Assembly (NCBI GenBank): GCA_041485045.1
Contig: JBGPIW010000001.1
Span: 1-32,611 of the forward strand
Source: Gemmatimonadota bacterium
Lineage (GTDB): Bacteria; Gemmatimonadota; Gemmatimonadetes; Gemmatimonadales; GWC2-71-9
Length of the DNA stretch: 32,611 bases
Direction: 5' to 3'
Every line of letters begins with the position of its first letter. The first letter of the stretch is position 1. Below, piece by piece: positions 7,047 to 31,941 of this stretch. The notes below the pieces were generated by a model. That model did no database searches. It was not told where the DNA came from and worked only from the letters and a program-made list of their open reading frames with translations. A program made the position numbers and the translations under genes.

Positions 7047-8155
7047 GCGGCAGGGTCGCGGAGGTCGCCCGCACGTTCCGGGTGGGTGGAGAGATCACCG
7101 GCATCGCCGCCGTGCCCGGCGGCCACATCAACGATACCTATCGGGTGGACGTGCGCCCTGAGGGTGGGGCGGGCCGGAGCTTCGTTCTACAACGGCTCAA
7201 CTCCGCAGTCTTCCGGCGGCCCGATCTCGTGATGGAGAACGTGGCGCGGGTCACGCGGCATGTCACCCTCGCGGCGGGGGCGGCCGGGCGGACGTCTCCC
7301 CTGGCTCCGCTCGTCCTCACCGATCACGGCGCCGACTGGCTCGCCGATCCCGCGGGTGGCGTATGGCGGATGTTCGTCTTCGTGGCAGGTTCGGTCGTGC
7401 GCGAGCGACCCCAATCGCCCGCCGATTGTGAGGCGGCGGGGCGTGCGTTCGGAGGGCTCCTGGTGCTCCTGGCACACTGGGAGGAAGCGCCGCTGCACGA
7501 GACGATTCCCGGATTCCACGACACCCGCGCCCGATTGGCTCAACTCGCGGGAGCGGTCCGCGCCGACGTCGCCGGCCGGGCTGCGGGCGTCCGCGCCGAA
7601 ATCGCGGCCATCGAGCAGGCACGCGGTCTCGCCGACGTCCTGCCCCCGCTGCTCGCCTCGGGTGAAGTGCCGGTGCGGGTCACTCACAACGACGCCAAGC
7701 TCTCCAACGTGCTGCTCGACGCGCGCATCGGGGCCCCGGTGTGCGTCGTCGATCTGGATACCGTGATGCCCGGCTCCGCCCTGTACGATTTCGGCGACTT
7801 GGTGCGCTCGACCGTAAGCCCCTCGGCGGAGGATGAGGAGGACCTGAGCGGGGTCGGCGTGCAGGTGGAGTACTTCGCGGCGCTGGCGCGGGGGTACCTG
7901 TCGGCAGCCGGGGCGGTGTTGACGACCCGGGAGCGCGACCTGCTGGCGTTCGCGGGGCAGTTGATCACCCTCGAGCAGGCGGCGCGCTTTCTGACCGATC
8001 ACCTGGCGGGGGACGTCTATTATCGCGTCGAGCGGCCGGGCCAGAACCTCAGTCGCGCCCGCAGCCAGCTCGCGCTGCTCCGGTCGCTCACCGCTCAGGC
8101 GCGCGCCCTGCAGGAAATGGTCAACCGCCTTGCATCCGCGGCGGCTGGGTCCTAG
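7037..8155 (+). CDS. APH-fold (aminoglycoside-phosphotransferase-like) kinase, N-acetylhexosamine-1-kinase (NahK)-like
   Basis: The likely start is GTG 7037, which overlaps the upstream stop (7044-7046) by 10 nt and suggests coupling. Motifs present are GGHINDTYRV (nucleotide-binding loop), a catalytic-loop VTHNDAKLSNVLLD and VVDLDTVMPGSALYDFGDL. The track ORF portion from 6644 to 7036 is an out-of-frame overlap with the previous gene. Confidence 0.7.
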   Translation: MGLSGRVAEVARTFRVGGEITGIAAVPGGHINDTYRVDVRPEGGAGRSFVLQRLNSAVFRRPDLVMENVARVTRHVTLAAGAAGRTSPLAPLVLTDHGADWLADPAGGVWRMFVFVAGSVVRERPQSPADCEAAGRAFGGLLVLLAHWEEAPLHETIPGFHDTRARLAQLAGAVRADVAGRAAGVRAEIAAIEQARGLADVLPPLLASGEVPVRVTHNDAKLSNVLLDARIGAPVCVVDLDTVMPGSALYDFGDLVRSTVSPSAEDEEDLSGVGVQVEYFAALARGYLSAAGAVLTTRERDLLAFAGQLITLEQAARFLTDHLAGDVYYRVERPGQNLSRARSQLALLRSLTAQARALQEMVNRLASAAAGS

Positions 8156-8187
8156 CGTACTGCCCGAACCTCTCGCGAGCCTTCCCG

Positions 8188-8535
8188 ATGGCTTCCAGCC
8201 GCACCGCCGCATTGAACCGGATGCACGTCGCCGTCAAGGAGCTGATGGACCAGCTCGAGCTGATCGGCAACGAGGCGCCCGAGGGTCTCGTGGAATTGAA
8301 GAGCGCGGTCGACGAGGTGCGGCTGCGGCTCTGGGGGGTGCTGATGGCCGCGCAATCCCCGGGCGACAAGGGATTCGGCGACCGGTTCCGGCTGCGCCGG
8401 GCCGGAGAGATCCTGCGGGGCATCATCAGCGACGTGGACGGCGGGAGGCTGGATCTCTCGAACGCGGAGGGCGGTGAGCTGGGGATCGTGGCGCGCGAGC
8501 TGGGAAGACGGGCGACCGAAGCGCAGACGGGGTAG
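8188..8535 (+). CDS. Small conserved hypothetical protein (paralogue A of 21695..22045)
   Basis: 115-aa ORF, predicted helical. It is clearly paralogous to the 116-aa ORF at 21695..22045. Shared blocks are GLxELKxAVDxVRxRxWxVLMAA and FxxRFRLRRAxExL....DVDxG. Confidence 0.6.
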   Translation: MASSRTAALNRMHVAVKELMDQLELIGNEAPEGLVELKSAVDEVRLRLWGVLMAAQSPGDKGFGDRFRLRRAGEILRGIISDVDGGRLDLSNAEGGELGIVARELGRRATEAQTG

Positions 8536-8847
8536 CTATCGCAGTCGGACCTTGAAGCCCCCTCCGTCCTCATCCTGCGACCAGTCGGCGACTACCGTGG
8601 GAAGTTGCTGCAACAGGGCGGCTACCTTGCGCTTCAGCACGGGAGGACCCGCCGAGCCTTTCCCCCTGCCTGTGATCACGTGAACGACAAGACCTGAGCC
8701 TCGCCGCTGCCAGCGCTCGAGGAAACTCCGCGCCGCCCCTGCCGCCTCCGCTGCCCCGAAGCCGTGCAGATCGAGCCGCTCGGCGACCGGCGCGTCGAGC
8801 AGGGGGTCGGAAGCATCGAATCGGGGAGTCCCCCCACGGCGTTTCAC
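8536..8847 (-). CDS. Smr-domain protein
   Basis: The block LDLHGFGAAEAAGAARSFLERWQRRGSGLVVHVITGRGKGSAGPPVLKRKVAALL matches the Smr domain (LDLHG ... ITGxG). The start is uncertain. GTG at 8847 avoids a 107-nt overlap with the upstream gene, whereas the track ORF extends to ATG 8988. Confidence 0.6.
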   Translation of the reverse strand: MKRRGGTPRFDASDPLLDAPVAERLDLHGFGAAEAAGAARSFLERWQRRGSGLVVHVITGRGKGSAGPPVLKRKVAALLQQLPTVVADWSQDEDGGGFKVRLR

Positions 8848-8881
8848 GAAGGCGCCAGTCGCCGACGACCGCGCCGAGCAA

Positions 8882-9934
8882 TCAGTGGCTGATCGCGAAG
8901 AACCACGCCGCGATGACCGGACCCCGCGGTGGACGAGATCCCGGCTGGGGCGGCGGAGCGTCCGGGGCCGGCGCTGGCGCCGGCCCATACTCGGGCTGGA
9001 AGAGATACGCCACGTGCTTCACCGGATCCACCGTGATCGTCTTGGCGCCGCGCATTGTGGCGACGGTGGCCACCACCCTGTACGTGTCCGGTGAATCCTC
9101 ATGCACGACCGTGACGTTGCTGTCGCGCCCCGCGGGGATGTAGATGAGCTGCTCCACCGGGTCCCACCCCAGAGCGTCCACCCCATCGCCGTTGGTGACG
9201 GTGGCCACGACTTTGCCGGACGCGGGATCCACCACCACGGAGGTCTTACCGCACCCGACGAAGATCCGGTTCGTGGTGCGATCGTAGGCGATGCCCGTCG
9301 GGCCCTCGCACGGGGTGAGCGGCCACGAGGCCTGCACTTTCATGGTCGTCACGTCGATCACCTGCATGGTGCTCGTGCCTTCGTTGTTGACGAAGATCCT
9401 GCCCTTGCCGTCGCTCGCCGCGCCTTCCGGCGAGTTGTCCTCGAGCGGGGCCGTGCCCACGATGTCGCCGGTGTTGGCGTCGAGCGCCACGGCGCTCCCG
9501 ATCGGGCGGCTGTGATTCGTGAGGATGATCCGGTTGGAGAAATCCTCGTACATGATGCCGTCGAGGCCGCCGGTGGAGATCGGGATCTTCTTGATCACCG
9601 CCAGGCTCCGGAGGTCGAACATGGTGACGGTCGAATCGCCGCCGTTGGTGGTGAAACCGTGGTTCGACTTGGGCGCGAGCGCGATCCCGTGGATCCGAGG
9701 CGTGTCGGGAATGTCGCCCAAGATCTTGCCCGTCGCCCCATCGATTACCAGGACGTGTGTCGCGCGGGACACGAAGACGCGGCCCGTGCCGGGCTCCGCG
9801 GTCAGGTAATCGGTGCCGCCGTCGCCGCCGATGCTGAATTTCGCGACCGTGAACGTTTGGGCTCGGCTGACGTCTGGCCACGCCAGGGCGAAGGCGATGG
9901 CGAACGCAGGAACGATCGCGGAGTGTCTGATCAT
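8882..9934 (-). CDS. Secreted YncE/YVTN-type beta-propeller protein with Pro-rich C-terminal tail
   Basis: ATG at 9934. The signal peptide is MIRHSAIVPAFAIAFALAWPDVSRA|Q. Repeated blades are visible (GRVFVSRATHVLVIDGATGK, DSTVTMFDLRSL, GRIFVNNEGTSTMQVIDVTTMK, NRIFVGCGKTSVVVDPASGK). Confidence 0.75.
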   Translation of the reverse strand: MIRHSAIVPAFAIAFALAWPDVSRAQTFTVAKFSIGGDGGTDYLTAEPGTGRVFVSRATHVLVIDGATGKILGDIPDTPRIHGIALAPKSNHGFTTNGGDSTVTMFDLRSLAVIKKIPISTGGLDGIMYEDFSNRIILTNHSRPIGSAVALDANTGDIVGTAPLEDNSPEGAASDGKGRIFVNNEGTSTMQVIDVTTMKVQASWPLTPCEGPTGIAYDRTTNRIFVGCGKTSVVVDPASGKVVATVTNGDGVDALGWDPVEQLIYIPAGRDSNVTVVHEDSPDTYRVVATVATMRGAKTITVDPVKHVAYLFQPEYGPAPAPAPDAPPPQPGSRPPRGPVIAAWFFAISH

Positions 9935-26531: not shown

Positions 26532-26846
26532 TTAGTTCCTTGCGGCGATCTTGTGGAAGGTCGAGTTCGAAACCTCGTAGGCCTCAACCTTCGGCGTTCC
26601 CTCAACCACCTTCGTCAGGCTCTTCAGCACCTGCGGATAGATGTCGCGGCTATAGGTGTCCGCGTTCTCTTTGCTATCCCACAGACTGATCGCTACCGCT
26701 TCGGCGCGGTCCGGGGCGACAAACGAAATCTCGTCCCTGAATCCGTTCTGTTTCCGAAGCAGGGGCAGGACGTCCTTCTCCAGCGTCTGGGTAAACTCAC
26801 CGGCCGTGTTGGCCTTCAGATGCAGGGACACATTGCGTGCGTACAT
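26532..26846 (-). CDS. ABM-fold (antibiotic-biosynthesis-monooxygenase-like, dimeric alpha+beta barrel) protein
   Basis: 104-aa ORF with AAGGAGG 6 nt upstream of the ATG. The pattern MYARNVSLHLK...FVAPDRAEAVAISLWDSKENADTY is typical of ABM/Dabb small proteins. Confidence 0.6.
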   Translation of the reverse strand: MYARNVSLHLKANTAGEFTQTLEKDVLPLLRKQNGFRDEISFVAPDRAEAVAISLWDSKENADTYSRDIYPQVLKSLTKVVEGTPKVEAYEVSNSTFHKIAARN

Positions 26847-26924
26847 AGCGACCTCCTTGGTGGTGGCTCAACTCAACTATGGACTTCAGTTAACTACTGT
26901 AGTTGACACTTCCTCAACTTCTTC

Positions 26925-26955
26925 AACATATGCTAGTGTACTGTACTTGTCAAGT
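26925..26955 (-). promoter_or_regulatory. Strong sigma-70-type promoter of the ABM gene (ACTTGACAAGT ... TATGTT)
   Basis: On the minus strand the -35 TTGACA lies at 26953-26948, followed by a 17-nt spacer and the -10 TATGTT at 26930-25. The -35 is embedded in the palindrome ACTTGACAAGT (26955-26945). From the start of CTTGACA through the end of the -10 hexamer, 24 of 30 nt are identical to the groES promoter. Confidence 0.55.
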
Positions 26956-27238
26956 ATATCCGGCAAACTGCCGTATCGTTCTCGGGCGATTAACTTTCTA
27001 TGGTTAAAGAGCAAAGTCGCCCCTATCAGGAATCGTAAGGTAGACGAGGCTACCGTGCCCTGCGCCGCGTTCGCAGCCGGCTGGTCATCCTCCGCGCCGA
27101 GGCGCTGGTCCGATGAGCAACATCTATGGCTGGCCCGACGAGCTGGTGGCGACCATCAGGCGATAGGGGTGGGGATGCACCTTTCACCGCTGCGCAGCCT
27201 ACTCGCTGTCCGTTAGACGGCGCCTCAACCTCCCATCC

Positions 27239-27360
27239 ATGCCCGACCTTCTCGAACGTTTACAGAGCTGGTATCACCTCATGGTGACGGCGACTGGGAG
27301 CACGACGCCAGCGTAACCATCGAGACACTAACCACCTTCTTGGAATGGGCAGAGAAGTAG
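27239..27360 (+). pseudogene. Frameshifted and truncated remnant of an Imm53-like immunity protein gene
   Basis: The ATG at 27239 gives MPDLLERLQSWYHLMV..., stopping at 27316. A shift of one nucleotide near 27280 gives GDGDWEHDASVTIETL..., stopping at 27360. Joined, this reads LxRLQxWY....GDGDWEH...V.IETL, the N-terminal signature I recall for Imm53 proteins. The downstream DNPGW part is missing. Confidence 0.45.
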
Positions 27361-27553
27361 GGCCGGGGTCAAAACGCGCGTCGTCGAACAAGCGCGTGAG
27401 CTGGCGGCGCATAGATTAGGGAATGGATTGATCTTTCCGCGCGGCGCAGCTCAAGCGCCGTCCGTTAGGCATCCGCATCCACGATGCCTCTCTCGGCGGC
27501 GGCCAGGGAACGCGCGGTGATCGTCGAAGCATTCCCGGTCTGCGGAGGGCGTT

Positions 27554-30557: not shown

Positions 30558-31463
30558 CTACGGCGTGCTGAAATGCAGCGGGTCCCGCAAGCTCTGCAGC
30601 TCCCGGTAGTAGTAGAGGGCCGTGGGCCGCTTGTGCCTGAACTTCAGCTGCTTGAGGAGCTCGACTTCCTCCGGGGTCGCGGTGCCGCTGAGGGAAGGAT
30701 TCTGAAGGAATTCCTGGAGCCCCGGCTCTTCGCTGACGGGCTGTTCGGTTTCCCGCTCGACAAACTCGAATCGCTTCGCCTGCCCTGGGACGACGCTGTG
30801 GTTCAAGACAACCTCCAGACCGAACGTCGCGAGGTCAATGTCCCAGGATTCAATCAGCGGATCTAAGAACGAGACGCAGTTCTCAGCGGACACGTGAAAG
30901 ATGTCCGTATCGAGGAACTCGAGCACGATGACCCGCATCTCCTCATAGCTGCGACCGCTGAGTTGGGCCACCATGCGGAGCCAGTAGTCATTCCCGAGTT
31001 CGTCTTTCGCCACGCGCTTGACCACGTTCAGCAGCGTACGGGTGACGAGGCGTTCGAGCTCGCCGAAGGGCTGCTTTTCAAAAATCGCGCGGATGTGTTT
31101 TTCCTTCTCACGATTGGACTTGCGCAGGATCAACTCACGAAATTCGTGATACAGGGGTACGGGTGCCTCCCCCAATTCCCGCTTTAATTCTTCCTTGCGC
31201 TGGAGATCCGCCAGTTTGGCCAGTTCCCCGCTCGGAAGCTTCAAGAACTTGTCCATGCGGCCATAGATGTCGGTGCGGCTAGGCGCGGGAGGCGCCTTTT
31301 TCCGCGTCAGTAACTGAGAGATGTAGGAGTCGGTCACGCGGGCGGCGCGGGCGAGATCCTGCTGCTCCAACCCCAATTCCTCCAGCCGGTGCCGGATCAC
31401 CAATGGGACGTCCACGGGGTTCCTCCTGGGCCGAGTTGACTCCTTGACCATACCGTTAATCAT
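30558..31463 (-). CDS. XRE-family helix-turn-helix regulator with an uncharacterised ~220-aa C-terminal domain
   Basis: The N-terminal HTH is IRHRLEELGLEQQDLARAARVTDSYISQLLTRKK. The remainder matches no family I recognise. The gene is visibly AT-richer than the neighbourhood. It is encoded divergently from groES. Confidence 0.7.
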   Translation of the reverse strand: MINGMVKESTRPRRNPVDVPLVIRHRLEELGLEQQDLARAARVTDSYISQLLTRKKAPPAPSRTDIYGRMDKFLKLPSGELAKLADLQRKEELKRELGEAPVPLYHEFRELILRKSNREKEKHIRAIFEKQPFGELERLVTRTLLNVVKRVAKDELGNDYWLRMVAQLSGRSYEEMRVIVLEFLDTDIFHVSAENCVSFLDPLIESWDIDLATFGLEVVLNHSVVPGQAKRFEFVERETEQPVSEEPGLQEFLQNPSLSGTATPEEVELLKQLKFRHKRPTALYYYRELQSLRDPLHFSTP

Positions 31464-31487
31464 TTAACCGTACTATGTTAATCATTT
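31455..31487. repeat. Two exact 11-bp direct repeats GTTAATCATTT spaced 22 bp apart at the XRE gene start
   Basis: Read directly from the sequence: gttaatcattt at 31455-31465 covers the ATG, and the second copy at 31477-31487 overlaps the putative -10. The first copy forms the inverted repeat GTTAA-tcat-TTAAC with the following bases. Confidence 0.7.
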
Positions 31488-31503: not shown

Positions 31504-31515
31504 GGTGAATGGTTC

Positions 31516-31578
31516 ACTTGACAAGTCAAGTACACCAATATATGCTCACCAATCAGCAAACTGCTAATAGTTAACTGA
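31516..31578 (+). promoter_or_regulatory. groES-groEL promoter (ACTTGACAAGT ... TATGCT) plus a conserved downstream TAGTTAACTGA box
   Basis: The -35 TTGACA lies at 31518-31523 inside the palindrome ACTTGACAAGT (31516-31526). A 17-nt spacer precedes the -10 TATGCT at 31541-31546. The box TAGTTAACTGA at 31568-31578 contains the 8-bp palindrome AGTTAACT. Confidence 0.55.
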
Positions 31579-31632
31579 GATCCGCCGTTAAGTCACTTGT
31601 GCGGTTTTCCTTCAGTGTGGAGGCGGAGCATC

Positions 31633-31941
31633 ATGGTCACTGCGACGAAGAGCAGACTGAAGATCTTCCCGCTCGCCGATCGGGTAGCCATCCGGCCGAC
31701 GGAAGAGACCGAGGAGATGAAGGGTGGTCTCTACATCCCGGACACGGCCAAGGAGAAGCCGATCCAGGGTGAGGTCATCGCCGTCGGGCCCGGCCGGATG
31801 GAAAAGGGGCAGCGGGTCCCGATGGAGCTGAAGGGGGGGGACCGGGTTGTCTACGGGAAGTACGCCGGCTCGCAAGTCGAGCTGGGAGACGAAGAGATCA
31901 TCCTGATCAAAGAAGCCGACGTCATCGCCAAGCTCAGCTGA
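31633..31941 (+). CDS. groES: Co-chaperonin GroES
   Basis: ATG at 31633 has GGAGG about 10 nt upstream. Typical GroES sequence is present: [45 protein letters not shown]. The track ORF start at 31597 is rejected. Confidence 0.9.

Follow-up and report, generated by a model that had tools for sequence, protein, structure and literature searches.

Candidate operators and a putative XRE-family repressor of a chaperone stress regulon in soil Gemmatimonadota

The promoters of groES and of a gene for an ABM-fold protein, both located in a 32,611-nucleotide stretch of Gemmatimonadota DNA (the window), carry two kinds of inverted repeat, O1 and IR2, which we consider to be conserved candidate operators of an apparently undescribed chaperone stress regulon in soil Gemmatimonadota. 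The motif is conserved among genomes, is restricted to chaperone-type genes and is linked to an xre gene. We put at about 0.6 the probability that the product of this xre gene, located in the window at 30558-31415, is an autoregulated repressor of a small proteostasis regulon and that its paralogs act likewise in other genomes.

Promoters and inverted repeats in the window

According to the sequence-only reading, groES and the ABM-fold gene share a near-identical promoter and a downstream box, and a direct recount of the two 30-nucleotide promoters bore out its alignment, with the same base at 24 of 30 positions. The 19-nucleotide promoter core CTTGACAAGTNNAGTACAC is found in the window at 26936-26954 (minus strand) and 31517-31535 (plus strand) and nowhere else, against an expectation of 0.01, and allowing up to three mismatches added no further match. 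A consensus scanner called TTGACA-17-TATGTT (26953 to 26925, minus strand) at the ABM promoter and TTGACA-17-TATGCT (31518-31546, plus strand) at the groES promoter, each agreeing with the consensus at 10 of 12 positions; these were the sole strong sigma-70-like sites called in the two upstream regions. The features with which we are concerned are as follows.

26532-26846, minus strand: ABM-fold gene (104 aa), assigned by fold match and a putative regulon member by its motif
26890-26906, minus strand: IR2 of the ABM leader, TCAAC-TACAGTA-GTTAA; its right arm is TAGTTAACTGA at 26886-26896
26937-26958, minus strand: O1 of the ABM promoter, TATACTTGACAAGTACAGTACA; contains the -35 TTGACA (26953 to 26948); the -10 is TATGTT (26930 to 26925)
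26990-27007, plus strand: TTAAC-N8-GTTAA of the xre-leader type, followed by AAGTCGCCCCTATCAGGAATCG; position and layout as in xre leaders
30558-31415, minus strand: gene for the XRE-family regulator (285 aa), with an N-terminal Cro/C1-type helix-turn-helix (HTH) and a region of about 200 aa (residues 90-285)
31464-31481, minus strand: IR2 of the xre promoter, TTAAC-CGTACTAT-GTTAA on the plus strand; overlaps the inferred -10 TAACAT
31513-31534, plus strand: O1 of the groES promoter, TTCACTTGACAAGTCAAGTACA; inner repeat CTTGAC-AA-GTCAAG; -35 at 31518-31523 and -10 TATGCT at 31541-31546
31557-31574, plus strand: IR2 of the groES leader, CAAAC-TGCTAATA-GTTAA; left arm degenerate; TAGTTAACTGA box at 31568-31578
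31633-31941, plus strand: groES (Cpn10, E 1.4e-29)
31959 to beyond the window end, plus strand: groEL, 3' of groES

The -35 hexamers had been placed within the palindrome ACTTGACAAGT, and there they are, but the element runs beyond that 11-mer, from about 3 nucleotides upstream of it to AGTACA in the spacer. The downstream box, TAGTTAACTGA, is likewise present, not as a palindrome standing by itself but as one half, the right arm, of TyAAC-N7/8-GTTAA(C), an inverted repeat. In its extended form, TAGTTAACTGA(N2)TCC, it has two copies in the window, at 26881-26896 (minus strand) and 31568-31583 (plus strand), and TAGTTAACTGANNTCC is confined within the window to the ABM and groES leaders; the expectation is 0.00 in each case. 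The bare 11-mer with two mismatches is not significant alone (0.63 expected in the window). O1 and IR2 are absent at the other genes of the window (BON, SPFH and GH20), and it is an SPFH/Band-7 gene and a BON-domain gene that lie between the ABM-fold gene and the xre gene. Near-identical sister contigs (L001 and L002) have the gene order groES-groEL-hsp20.

The reading frame at 30558-31463 had been taken to encode the XRE protein. It does represent a gene, whose most likely start is not the ATG at 31463 but the GTG at 31415, which has a ribosome-binding site (AGGAGG) and is conserved in homologs. The promoter of xre can be placed by conserved position at TTGCAA (31503 to 31498), 17 nucleotides and TAACAT (31480 to 31475), a site at which the consensus scanner made no call.

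A further repeat reported upstream of the ABM promoter, TTAAC-N8-GTTAA at 26990-27007, was confirmed, and the window holds one other perfect copy, at 31464-31481 in the xre leader. The repeat at 26990-27007 sits at the position that it would have in an xre leader and is followed by AAGTCGCCCCTATCAGGAATCG, as compared with AAGTCGGCCCCAGGAGGAATCCCGTG in intact xre leaders. Probably a divergent xre paralog has been lost here, and the repeat is what is left of its decayed 5' end. No XRE coding remnant was found beside the ABM-fold gene in a tblastn search with eight ABM-linked paralogs. If the ABM promoter has indeed lost an xre partner of its own, the groES-linked XRE would be the protein that acts on it, in trans. 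Between the relic leader and the SPFH gene there are some 540 bp (27010-27550) without a convincing gene, with a GC content of 62-63%, below the 70-75% of coding regions upstream in the window.

The groES leader contains at 31579-31618 an insertion of about 40 nucleotides (ATCCGCCGTTAAGTCACTTGTGCGGTTTTCCTTCAGTGTG) relative to orthologs with short leaders (L014, L035, L041 and L049), in which IR2 abuts the ribosome-binding site. The insertion is kept in one clade, and its RNA fold is not significant (z = 0.67), with almost no covariation.

Conservation of the motif and its linkage to xre

We scanned one genome from each of about 185,000 species for exact matches to ACTTGACAAGTNNAGTAC-N8-ANNNT, a pattern with 18 fixed bases, and recovered 66 loci, all but a handful of which were in metagenome-assembled genomes (MAGs) of Gemmatimonadales or other Gemmatimonadota. 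A few were labelled Rokuibacteriota, Nitrospirales, Acidobacteriota, Deltaproteobacteria, Eisenbacteria or Actinomycetes, which could reflect mis-binning or gene transfer, as MAG taxonomy labels may be unreliable; one match in Terrisporobacter looks like chance. The first open reading frame 3' of the motif encoded an ABM-like protein in 26 cases, GroES in 23, HSP20 (PF00011, E 6e-24) in 17 and a Big_5 plus Ice_binding lipoprotein in four, counts that take in the window and its sister contigs, the remainder being singletons or miscalls. So few loci in so many species, nearly all at chaperone-type genes, exclude the possibility that the motifs are generic features of strong promoters. The suggested further members dnaK, clpB, htpG and lon did not materialize, none of them lying behind the strict motif in the species scan, and, with dnaK, clpB and lon outside it, the system is not the whole of the heat-shock response.

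When 70 promoters were aligned in register, conservation extended beyond the fixed positions to T-G-T before ACTTGAC, to A after AGTAC, to the -10 (TA...T) and to a downstream AAC...TAGTTAA block. As had been suggested, orthologous groES upstream regions were also compared, and O1 is kept in L011, L012 and L014 despite diverged flanks.

An XRE homolog (50-91% identity; tblastn with the XRE protein of the window as query) adjoins the motif in most loci, whatever the target gene, and at 47 of 67 motif sites the homolog starts divergently within 200 nucleotides. More than 100 loci in all have an XRE gene divergent from a promoter with the motif. Meanwhile, 18 of the 67 sites have no neighboring xre, as at the ABM promoter of the window, and the frequency of such promoters makes regulation in trans plausible.

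Because the scan fixed 18 positions, which make up most of O1, the species-scan set is biased. We therefore assembled a motif-blind set of 80 metagenome loci picked by similarity to the XRE protein alone, 78 of which had enough upstream sequence. The core CTTGACAA was present 60-135 nucleotides upstream of xre in 73 of the 78. The divergent gene in the aligned loci was ABM-like in 46 cases, groES in nine and hsp20 in five, and loci without a homology match included at least two more divergent small heat-shock genes and one pirin-like gene. The consensus of the 73 aligned loci is T.taCTTGACAaGT.aAGTa.A...TA...T, in which AGT and A of the spacer are conserved at 1.6-1.8 bits, although sigma-70 imposes no constraint there; the outer arm of O1 is variable in this set. 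XRE and GroES are about equally conserved across the same loci (79-91% and 82-91% identity, respectively).

These comparisons support the proposal that the ABM and groES units are co-regulated by a palindrome-binding factor, and the divergent neighbor at 47 of 67 sites and the core in 73 of 78 loci favor the adjacent XRE protein, which had been named as a possibility, as the candidate factor. The idea of a non-CIRCE stress regulon likewise gains support from the restriction of the motif to chaperone-type genes in dozens of genomes.

Both elements could be delimited by comparison. O1 is a palindrome that spans the -35 of target promoters and the adjoining half of the spacer; it has the form (G)TACTTGAC-AA-GTCAAGTAC at groES-type promoters and TGTACT-TGACAAGTNN-AGTACA at ABM and HSP20 promoters. 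Its better conserved arm is the one inside the spacer; because the -35 hexamer falls within O1, some of the conservation of this element is no more than that of the promoter. IR2 is an 18-bp inverted repeat, TyAAC-N7/8-GTTAA(C), located in target leaders and at the -10 of xre; examples are GTCAACTA-CAG-TAGTTAAC at the ABM gene of the window and TCAAC-TACGAAAA-GTTAA at the groES gene of L014. With one mismatch allowed, IR2 was found in 54 of 73 target leaders (2.5% of shuffles) and in 61 of 73 xre leaders (1.2% of shuffles). TTAAC-N8-GTTAA is present in every xre leader compared and overlaps a conserved TAACNT located 17 nucleotides after a TTGCMA -35. Measured from the center of O1, the distances to IR2 peak at 22, 44 and 58 bp toward the target and at 38 and 48 bp toward xre (by our own count, 44.5 bp for groES, 52 bp for ABM and 48.5 bp for xre in the window), and these discrete spacings on both sides indicate the order IR2 - O1 - IR2 over a pair of back-to-back promoters. 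Loci of a second operator class combine an O1 of the form CTTGAC-N2-GTCAAG with an IR2 over the target -10, and many of them resemble the matches labelled Acidobacteriota.

Some loci depart from the common arrangement. In L026, L033, L045, L065 and L074 the gene paired with xre through an O1/IR2 promoter encodes a Big_5 plus Ice_binding (DUF3494) lipoprotein, and the XRE protein is a separate paralog (62-67% identity); thus the module is not limited to classical chaperones. Four loci (L056, L064, L068 and L032) have an ABM-like gene divergent from hsp20 with no xre between them; each gene has its own O1, the two copies lying back to back about 20-25 bp apart. On two independent contigs, L039 (at about 2880, minus strand) and L122, the O1/IR2 promoter is followed by a conserved 47-aa open reading frame that resembles the N-terminal part of GroES only, MA(N/T)LPKSPI(K/E)PKSEIKILYS...

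The XRE protein scores 23.2 bits against Pfam HTH_3 (cutoff 23), placing its N-terminus among Cro/C1-type HTH domains, and 24.3 bits against HTH_31, below the cutoff of 27; there is no Pfam match in residues 87-285. In an AlphaFold model (pLDDT 79, pTM 0.47) the N-terminal HTH is followed by a long linker helix and then by a C-terminal region of alpha/beta type. Foldseek matched the HTH only (residues 1 to about 90), with HigA, ClgR and the 434 and P22 repressors at probability 1.0, and DdrO too. The family has more than 8000 protein matches, the best listed being at least 83% identical, and 137 clusters at 50% clustering with E<=1e-30; a profile search for diverse homologs returned the same clade again (at least 82% identity). 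Whatever the operator class, the recognition helix reads VTESYISQLL without variation. L005 (5883-6390, with fragments at 1-700 and 1891-2181) holds a population variant of the window locus in which only the HTH of XRE, about 112 aa, remains and is joined to a C-terminal piece of BON. BON and SPFH fragments are duplicated there, and an Imm53 gene has been inserted. Either the regulator has naturally lost its C-terminal region in this variant or the contig is a chimera of assembly. In L011 a DarT-Macro (DarTG-type) toxin-antitoxin pair at 7378-9325, about 4 kb from the xre-groES module, is probably unrelated to it.

The label "ABM-fold" that had been given to the 104-aa protein holds at the level of predicted fold. 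Its AlphaFold model (pLDDT 78.5) matches LsrG and ABM monooxygenases in Foldseek (TM about 0.7, E 1e-6), has the secondary structure E-H-E-E-H-H-E and conforms to a ferredoxin-like beta-alpha-beta-beta-alpha-beta fold. There were 166 PDB structure matches at E<=0.001, among them LsrG, SnoaB and ActVA-Orf6 at TM 0.65-0.76. By sequence, the Pfam ABM (PF03992) score falls short of its cutoff (14.1 bits against 23.1, E 0.056), ABM and YdhR both being below threshold (E 0.04-0.06), and no PDB sequence match was found. The fold class has a precedent in the "stress-responsive A/B barrel" proteins of plants, SP1/HS1 among them. The family has more than 8000 protein matches, and its genes are often embedded among chaperonin genes: ABM-groES follows a divergent xre in L016, L019-L021, L046, L067 and L079, groES-groEL-ABM occurs in L034, L049, L055 and L060, and the metagenome set has 10 ABM-groES operons. 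The presence of ABM-like genes inside chaperonin operons argues strongly for a functional link to proteostasis.

A repressor model and its alternatives

In our model XRE would bind both O1 and IR2 in the absence of stress and would repress rather than activate, shutting off groES-groEL-hsp20, the ABM-fold gene and xre itself. O1 spans the -35 hexamer and the adjoining half of the spacer, and IR2 lies in the early transcribed region or, in the second class, over the -10. Heat or proteotoxic stress would then inactivate XRE through its C-terminal region, for which candidate routes are intrinsic thermolability as for RheA, chaperone titration as for HrcA/GroEL, and proteolysis as for DdrO/IrrE. 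The ABM promoter in the window would be served in trans by the groES-linked XRE. Given that the target promoters are near-consensus sigma-70 promoters, they should need no activator, and the location of IR2 across the -10 of xre implies negative autoregulation. Thus, near-consensus promoters together with sites over the -35 and spacer, past the -10 and over the regulator's own -10 point to a negatively autoregulated repressor. The nature of the target genes makes heat or proteotoxic stress the likely signal, and, because neither the ice-binding-like family nor the pirin-like gene belongs to the classical heat-shock set, the signal may extend beyond heat.

It is possible, if rather unlikely, that two regulators are at work, XRE binding IR2 only, as a classical autoregulatory site over its own -10, and an unlinked factor binding O1, or the reverse. 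The arms of the two elements do differ, in sequence as well as in spacing (CTTGAC-N2-GTCAAG or TGTACT-N10-AGTACA for O1 and TTAAC-N8-GTTAA for IR2), so that one dimer could not bind both in the same way and a second factor is conceivable, and it is IR2 that marks xre promoters and O1 that marks target promoters, the ABM-HSP20 pairs carrying two copies of O1. There is precedent in Helicobacter and Campylobacter, where groES is under the dual control of HspR and HrcA (PMC6032397, PMC7464140). Against a second regulator, however, the half-sites are related (GTyAA[G/C] in both, with right arms of IR2 often reading GTCAAG(T)), O1 and IR2 travel together even at promoters without a neighboring xre, and no second regulator gene is linked to them. 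The invariant recognition helix of XRE fits contacts to invariant DNA (CTTGAC, GTyAA) and is compatible with either site as its target.

That XRE activates chaperone promoters in the manner of ClgR seems to us improbable. ClgR, which has an HTH of Cro/C1 type and activates clp, lon and chaperone genes, is indeed among the structural matches to the HTH, and O1 lies about 45-65 nucleotides upstream of the putative xre transcription start, as is typical of activator sites. But the target promoters combine 10 of 12 consensus positions with a 17-nucleotide spacer, O1 overlapping the -35 and spacer and IR2 downstream of or over the -10 are in repressor positions, and the -10 of xre is itself covered by IR2. 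The least probable is that the similarities reflect the shared ancestry of duplicated xre-target modules that are no longer co-regulated, or that IR2 is an RNA leader hairpin. The relic xre leader at the ABM promoter does mark the two regions as paralogous modules; yet modules whose XRE proteins are 50-90% identical keep the motif columns only, with their flanks randomized. As part of the transcript, the IR2 of target leaders can fold into a short stem, but at xre promoters IR2 overlaps the -10 and is thus partly untranscribed, and the leader fold (z = 0.67) shows no covariation. RNA-level control as the main mechanism was also considered and rejected: there was no Rfam match in the window, the fold of the groES leader was the one just given, and covariation was almost absent.

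Second-class ABM and HSP20 leaders (L102, L104, L114, L116, L124, L131, L134, L149 and others, and also L022 and L066) have a long conserved 5' UTR containing a CCCUUGGCC-N-GACAACCAAGGAG hairpin that would pair with the Shine-Dalgarno sequence in the fashion of an RNA thermometer. RNAalifold predicts the Shine-Dalgarno stem; its pairs are invariant, and hence it receives no support from covariation.

Relation to known heat-shock control systems

Textbook accounts of bacterial heat-shock control rest on a few systems, namely sigma-32, HrcA/CIRCE, HspR/HAIR, CtsR and RheA. In soil, few phyla are more abundant than Gemmatimonadota, whose stress regulation is, to our knowledge, essentially unstudied. 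A literature search of incomplete coverage found no published description of an XRE/O1/IR2 system, which is absence of evidence only. We regard it as evenly balanced whether the proteins described here constitute a phylum-wide, undescribed regulator family, with a Cro/C1 HTH, a sensor region of about 200 aa without known fold and IR2 - O1 - IR2 sites, that substitutes for HrcA/CIRCE at groESL in many members of Gemmatimonadota (and in some MAGs that bear the label Acidobacteriota, Rokubacteria or Nitrospirota) and has the ABM-fold protein as a core, operon-embedded chaperonin partner. Were this so, a new regulator family and new operators would be added to bacterial heat-shock control, the ABM-fold gene inside groES(L) operons would be a testable candidate for a new chaperone-associated protein, and the repressor and operator might provide a compact pair for a stress- or temperature-inducible switch. 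As the XRE and ABM-like families each have more than 8000 matches, the regulon annotation would, if our reading is correct, be usable in thousands of MAGs.

Among regulators with an HTH of the same kind, ClgR controls protein-quality-control genes and has a Cro/C1-type HTH that structurally matches that of XRE, but the protein has about 100 aa, is an activator and recognizes a different motif upstream of promoters. DdrO/IrrE, which governs the radiation/desiccation response of Deinococcus, offers an XRE-family repressor of a stress regulon whose palindrome overlaps promoters. The C-terminus of XRE has a weak local similarity to the C-terminal segment of DdrO, including ...L-R-G-K-R-P, that is not significant (E 0.011-0.024 with the full-length query or profile and 0.1-0.6 with the C-terminal region alone or its profile). 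The aligned segment, GLQEFLQNPSLSGTATPEEVELLKQLKFRHKRP, is suggestive of a DdrO-like C-terminal domain, but E stayed at 0.01-0.6 and did not improve with a profile, and we treat the similarity as a lead only. Unlike DdrO, XRE has an extra middle region of about 130 aa and its putative targets are chaperone rather than DNA-repair genes; no IrrE/ImmA-type (COG2856) protease was found among the called genes of the neighborhood.

HspR/HAIR likewise joins a repressor to an inverted repeat at chaperone promoters, and the CTTGA..TCAAG of HAIR superficially resembles CTTGAC-N2-GTCAAG. HspR, however, is a MerR-family protein whose usual targets are dnaK and clpB, and HAIR is absent in the window, as had been reported: the sole match to CTTGAGT-N7-ACTCAAG has three mismatches, at chance level, and lies inside the xre coding sequence rather than at a promoter.

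In layout the closest system is RheA/hsp18 of Streptomyces albus, in which the gene for the repressor and a small heat-shock gene are transcribed divergently and share an intergenic operator. The RheA operator covers the -10 and transcription start of the repressor's own promoter, providing for autoregulation, and the regulon is small and dedicated (PMC11754652). The same architecture is seen here, with a divergent putative repressor and IR2 over the inferred -10 of xre (IR2 being present, as noted, in most xre leaders), a match of architecture only. Unlike the RheA system, this one has groESL and an ABM-fold gene among its putative targets and two types of operator that differ in sequence; its regulator has 285 aa, as against about 25 kDa for RheA.

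In function the closest system is HrcA/CIRCE, in which groESL is under negative control, as we suppose here, with a sigma-70 promoter and an inverted repeat between promoter and start codon. The regulators differ, XRE having a Cro/C1-type HTH and not being HrcA, and the operator sequences are unrelated. The window contains no CIRCE (TTAGCACTC-N9-GAGTGCTAA) with up to three mismatches, in agreement with the sequence-only reading, and CIRCE is also absent from the groES promoters in 0.92 Mb of loci, with the exception of L117 (around 860) and L121 (1500-1560, minus strand). In these two loci a groES gene about 91% identical to that of the window stands behind a CIRCE-like TGGGCACTC-N9-GAGTGCTAT instead of O1/IR2, directly downstream of a divergent xre-ABM module that keeps O1. 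The CIRCE-like element in place of O1/IR2 at an orthologous gene suggests that the two are functionally equivalent and that the systems are interchangeable there. It looks like the replacement of one regulatory system by another, and, if our reading is correct, groES in these genomes would present a natural case of regulator replacement between CIRCE and O1/IR2.
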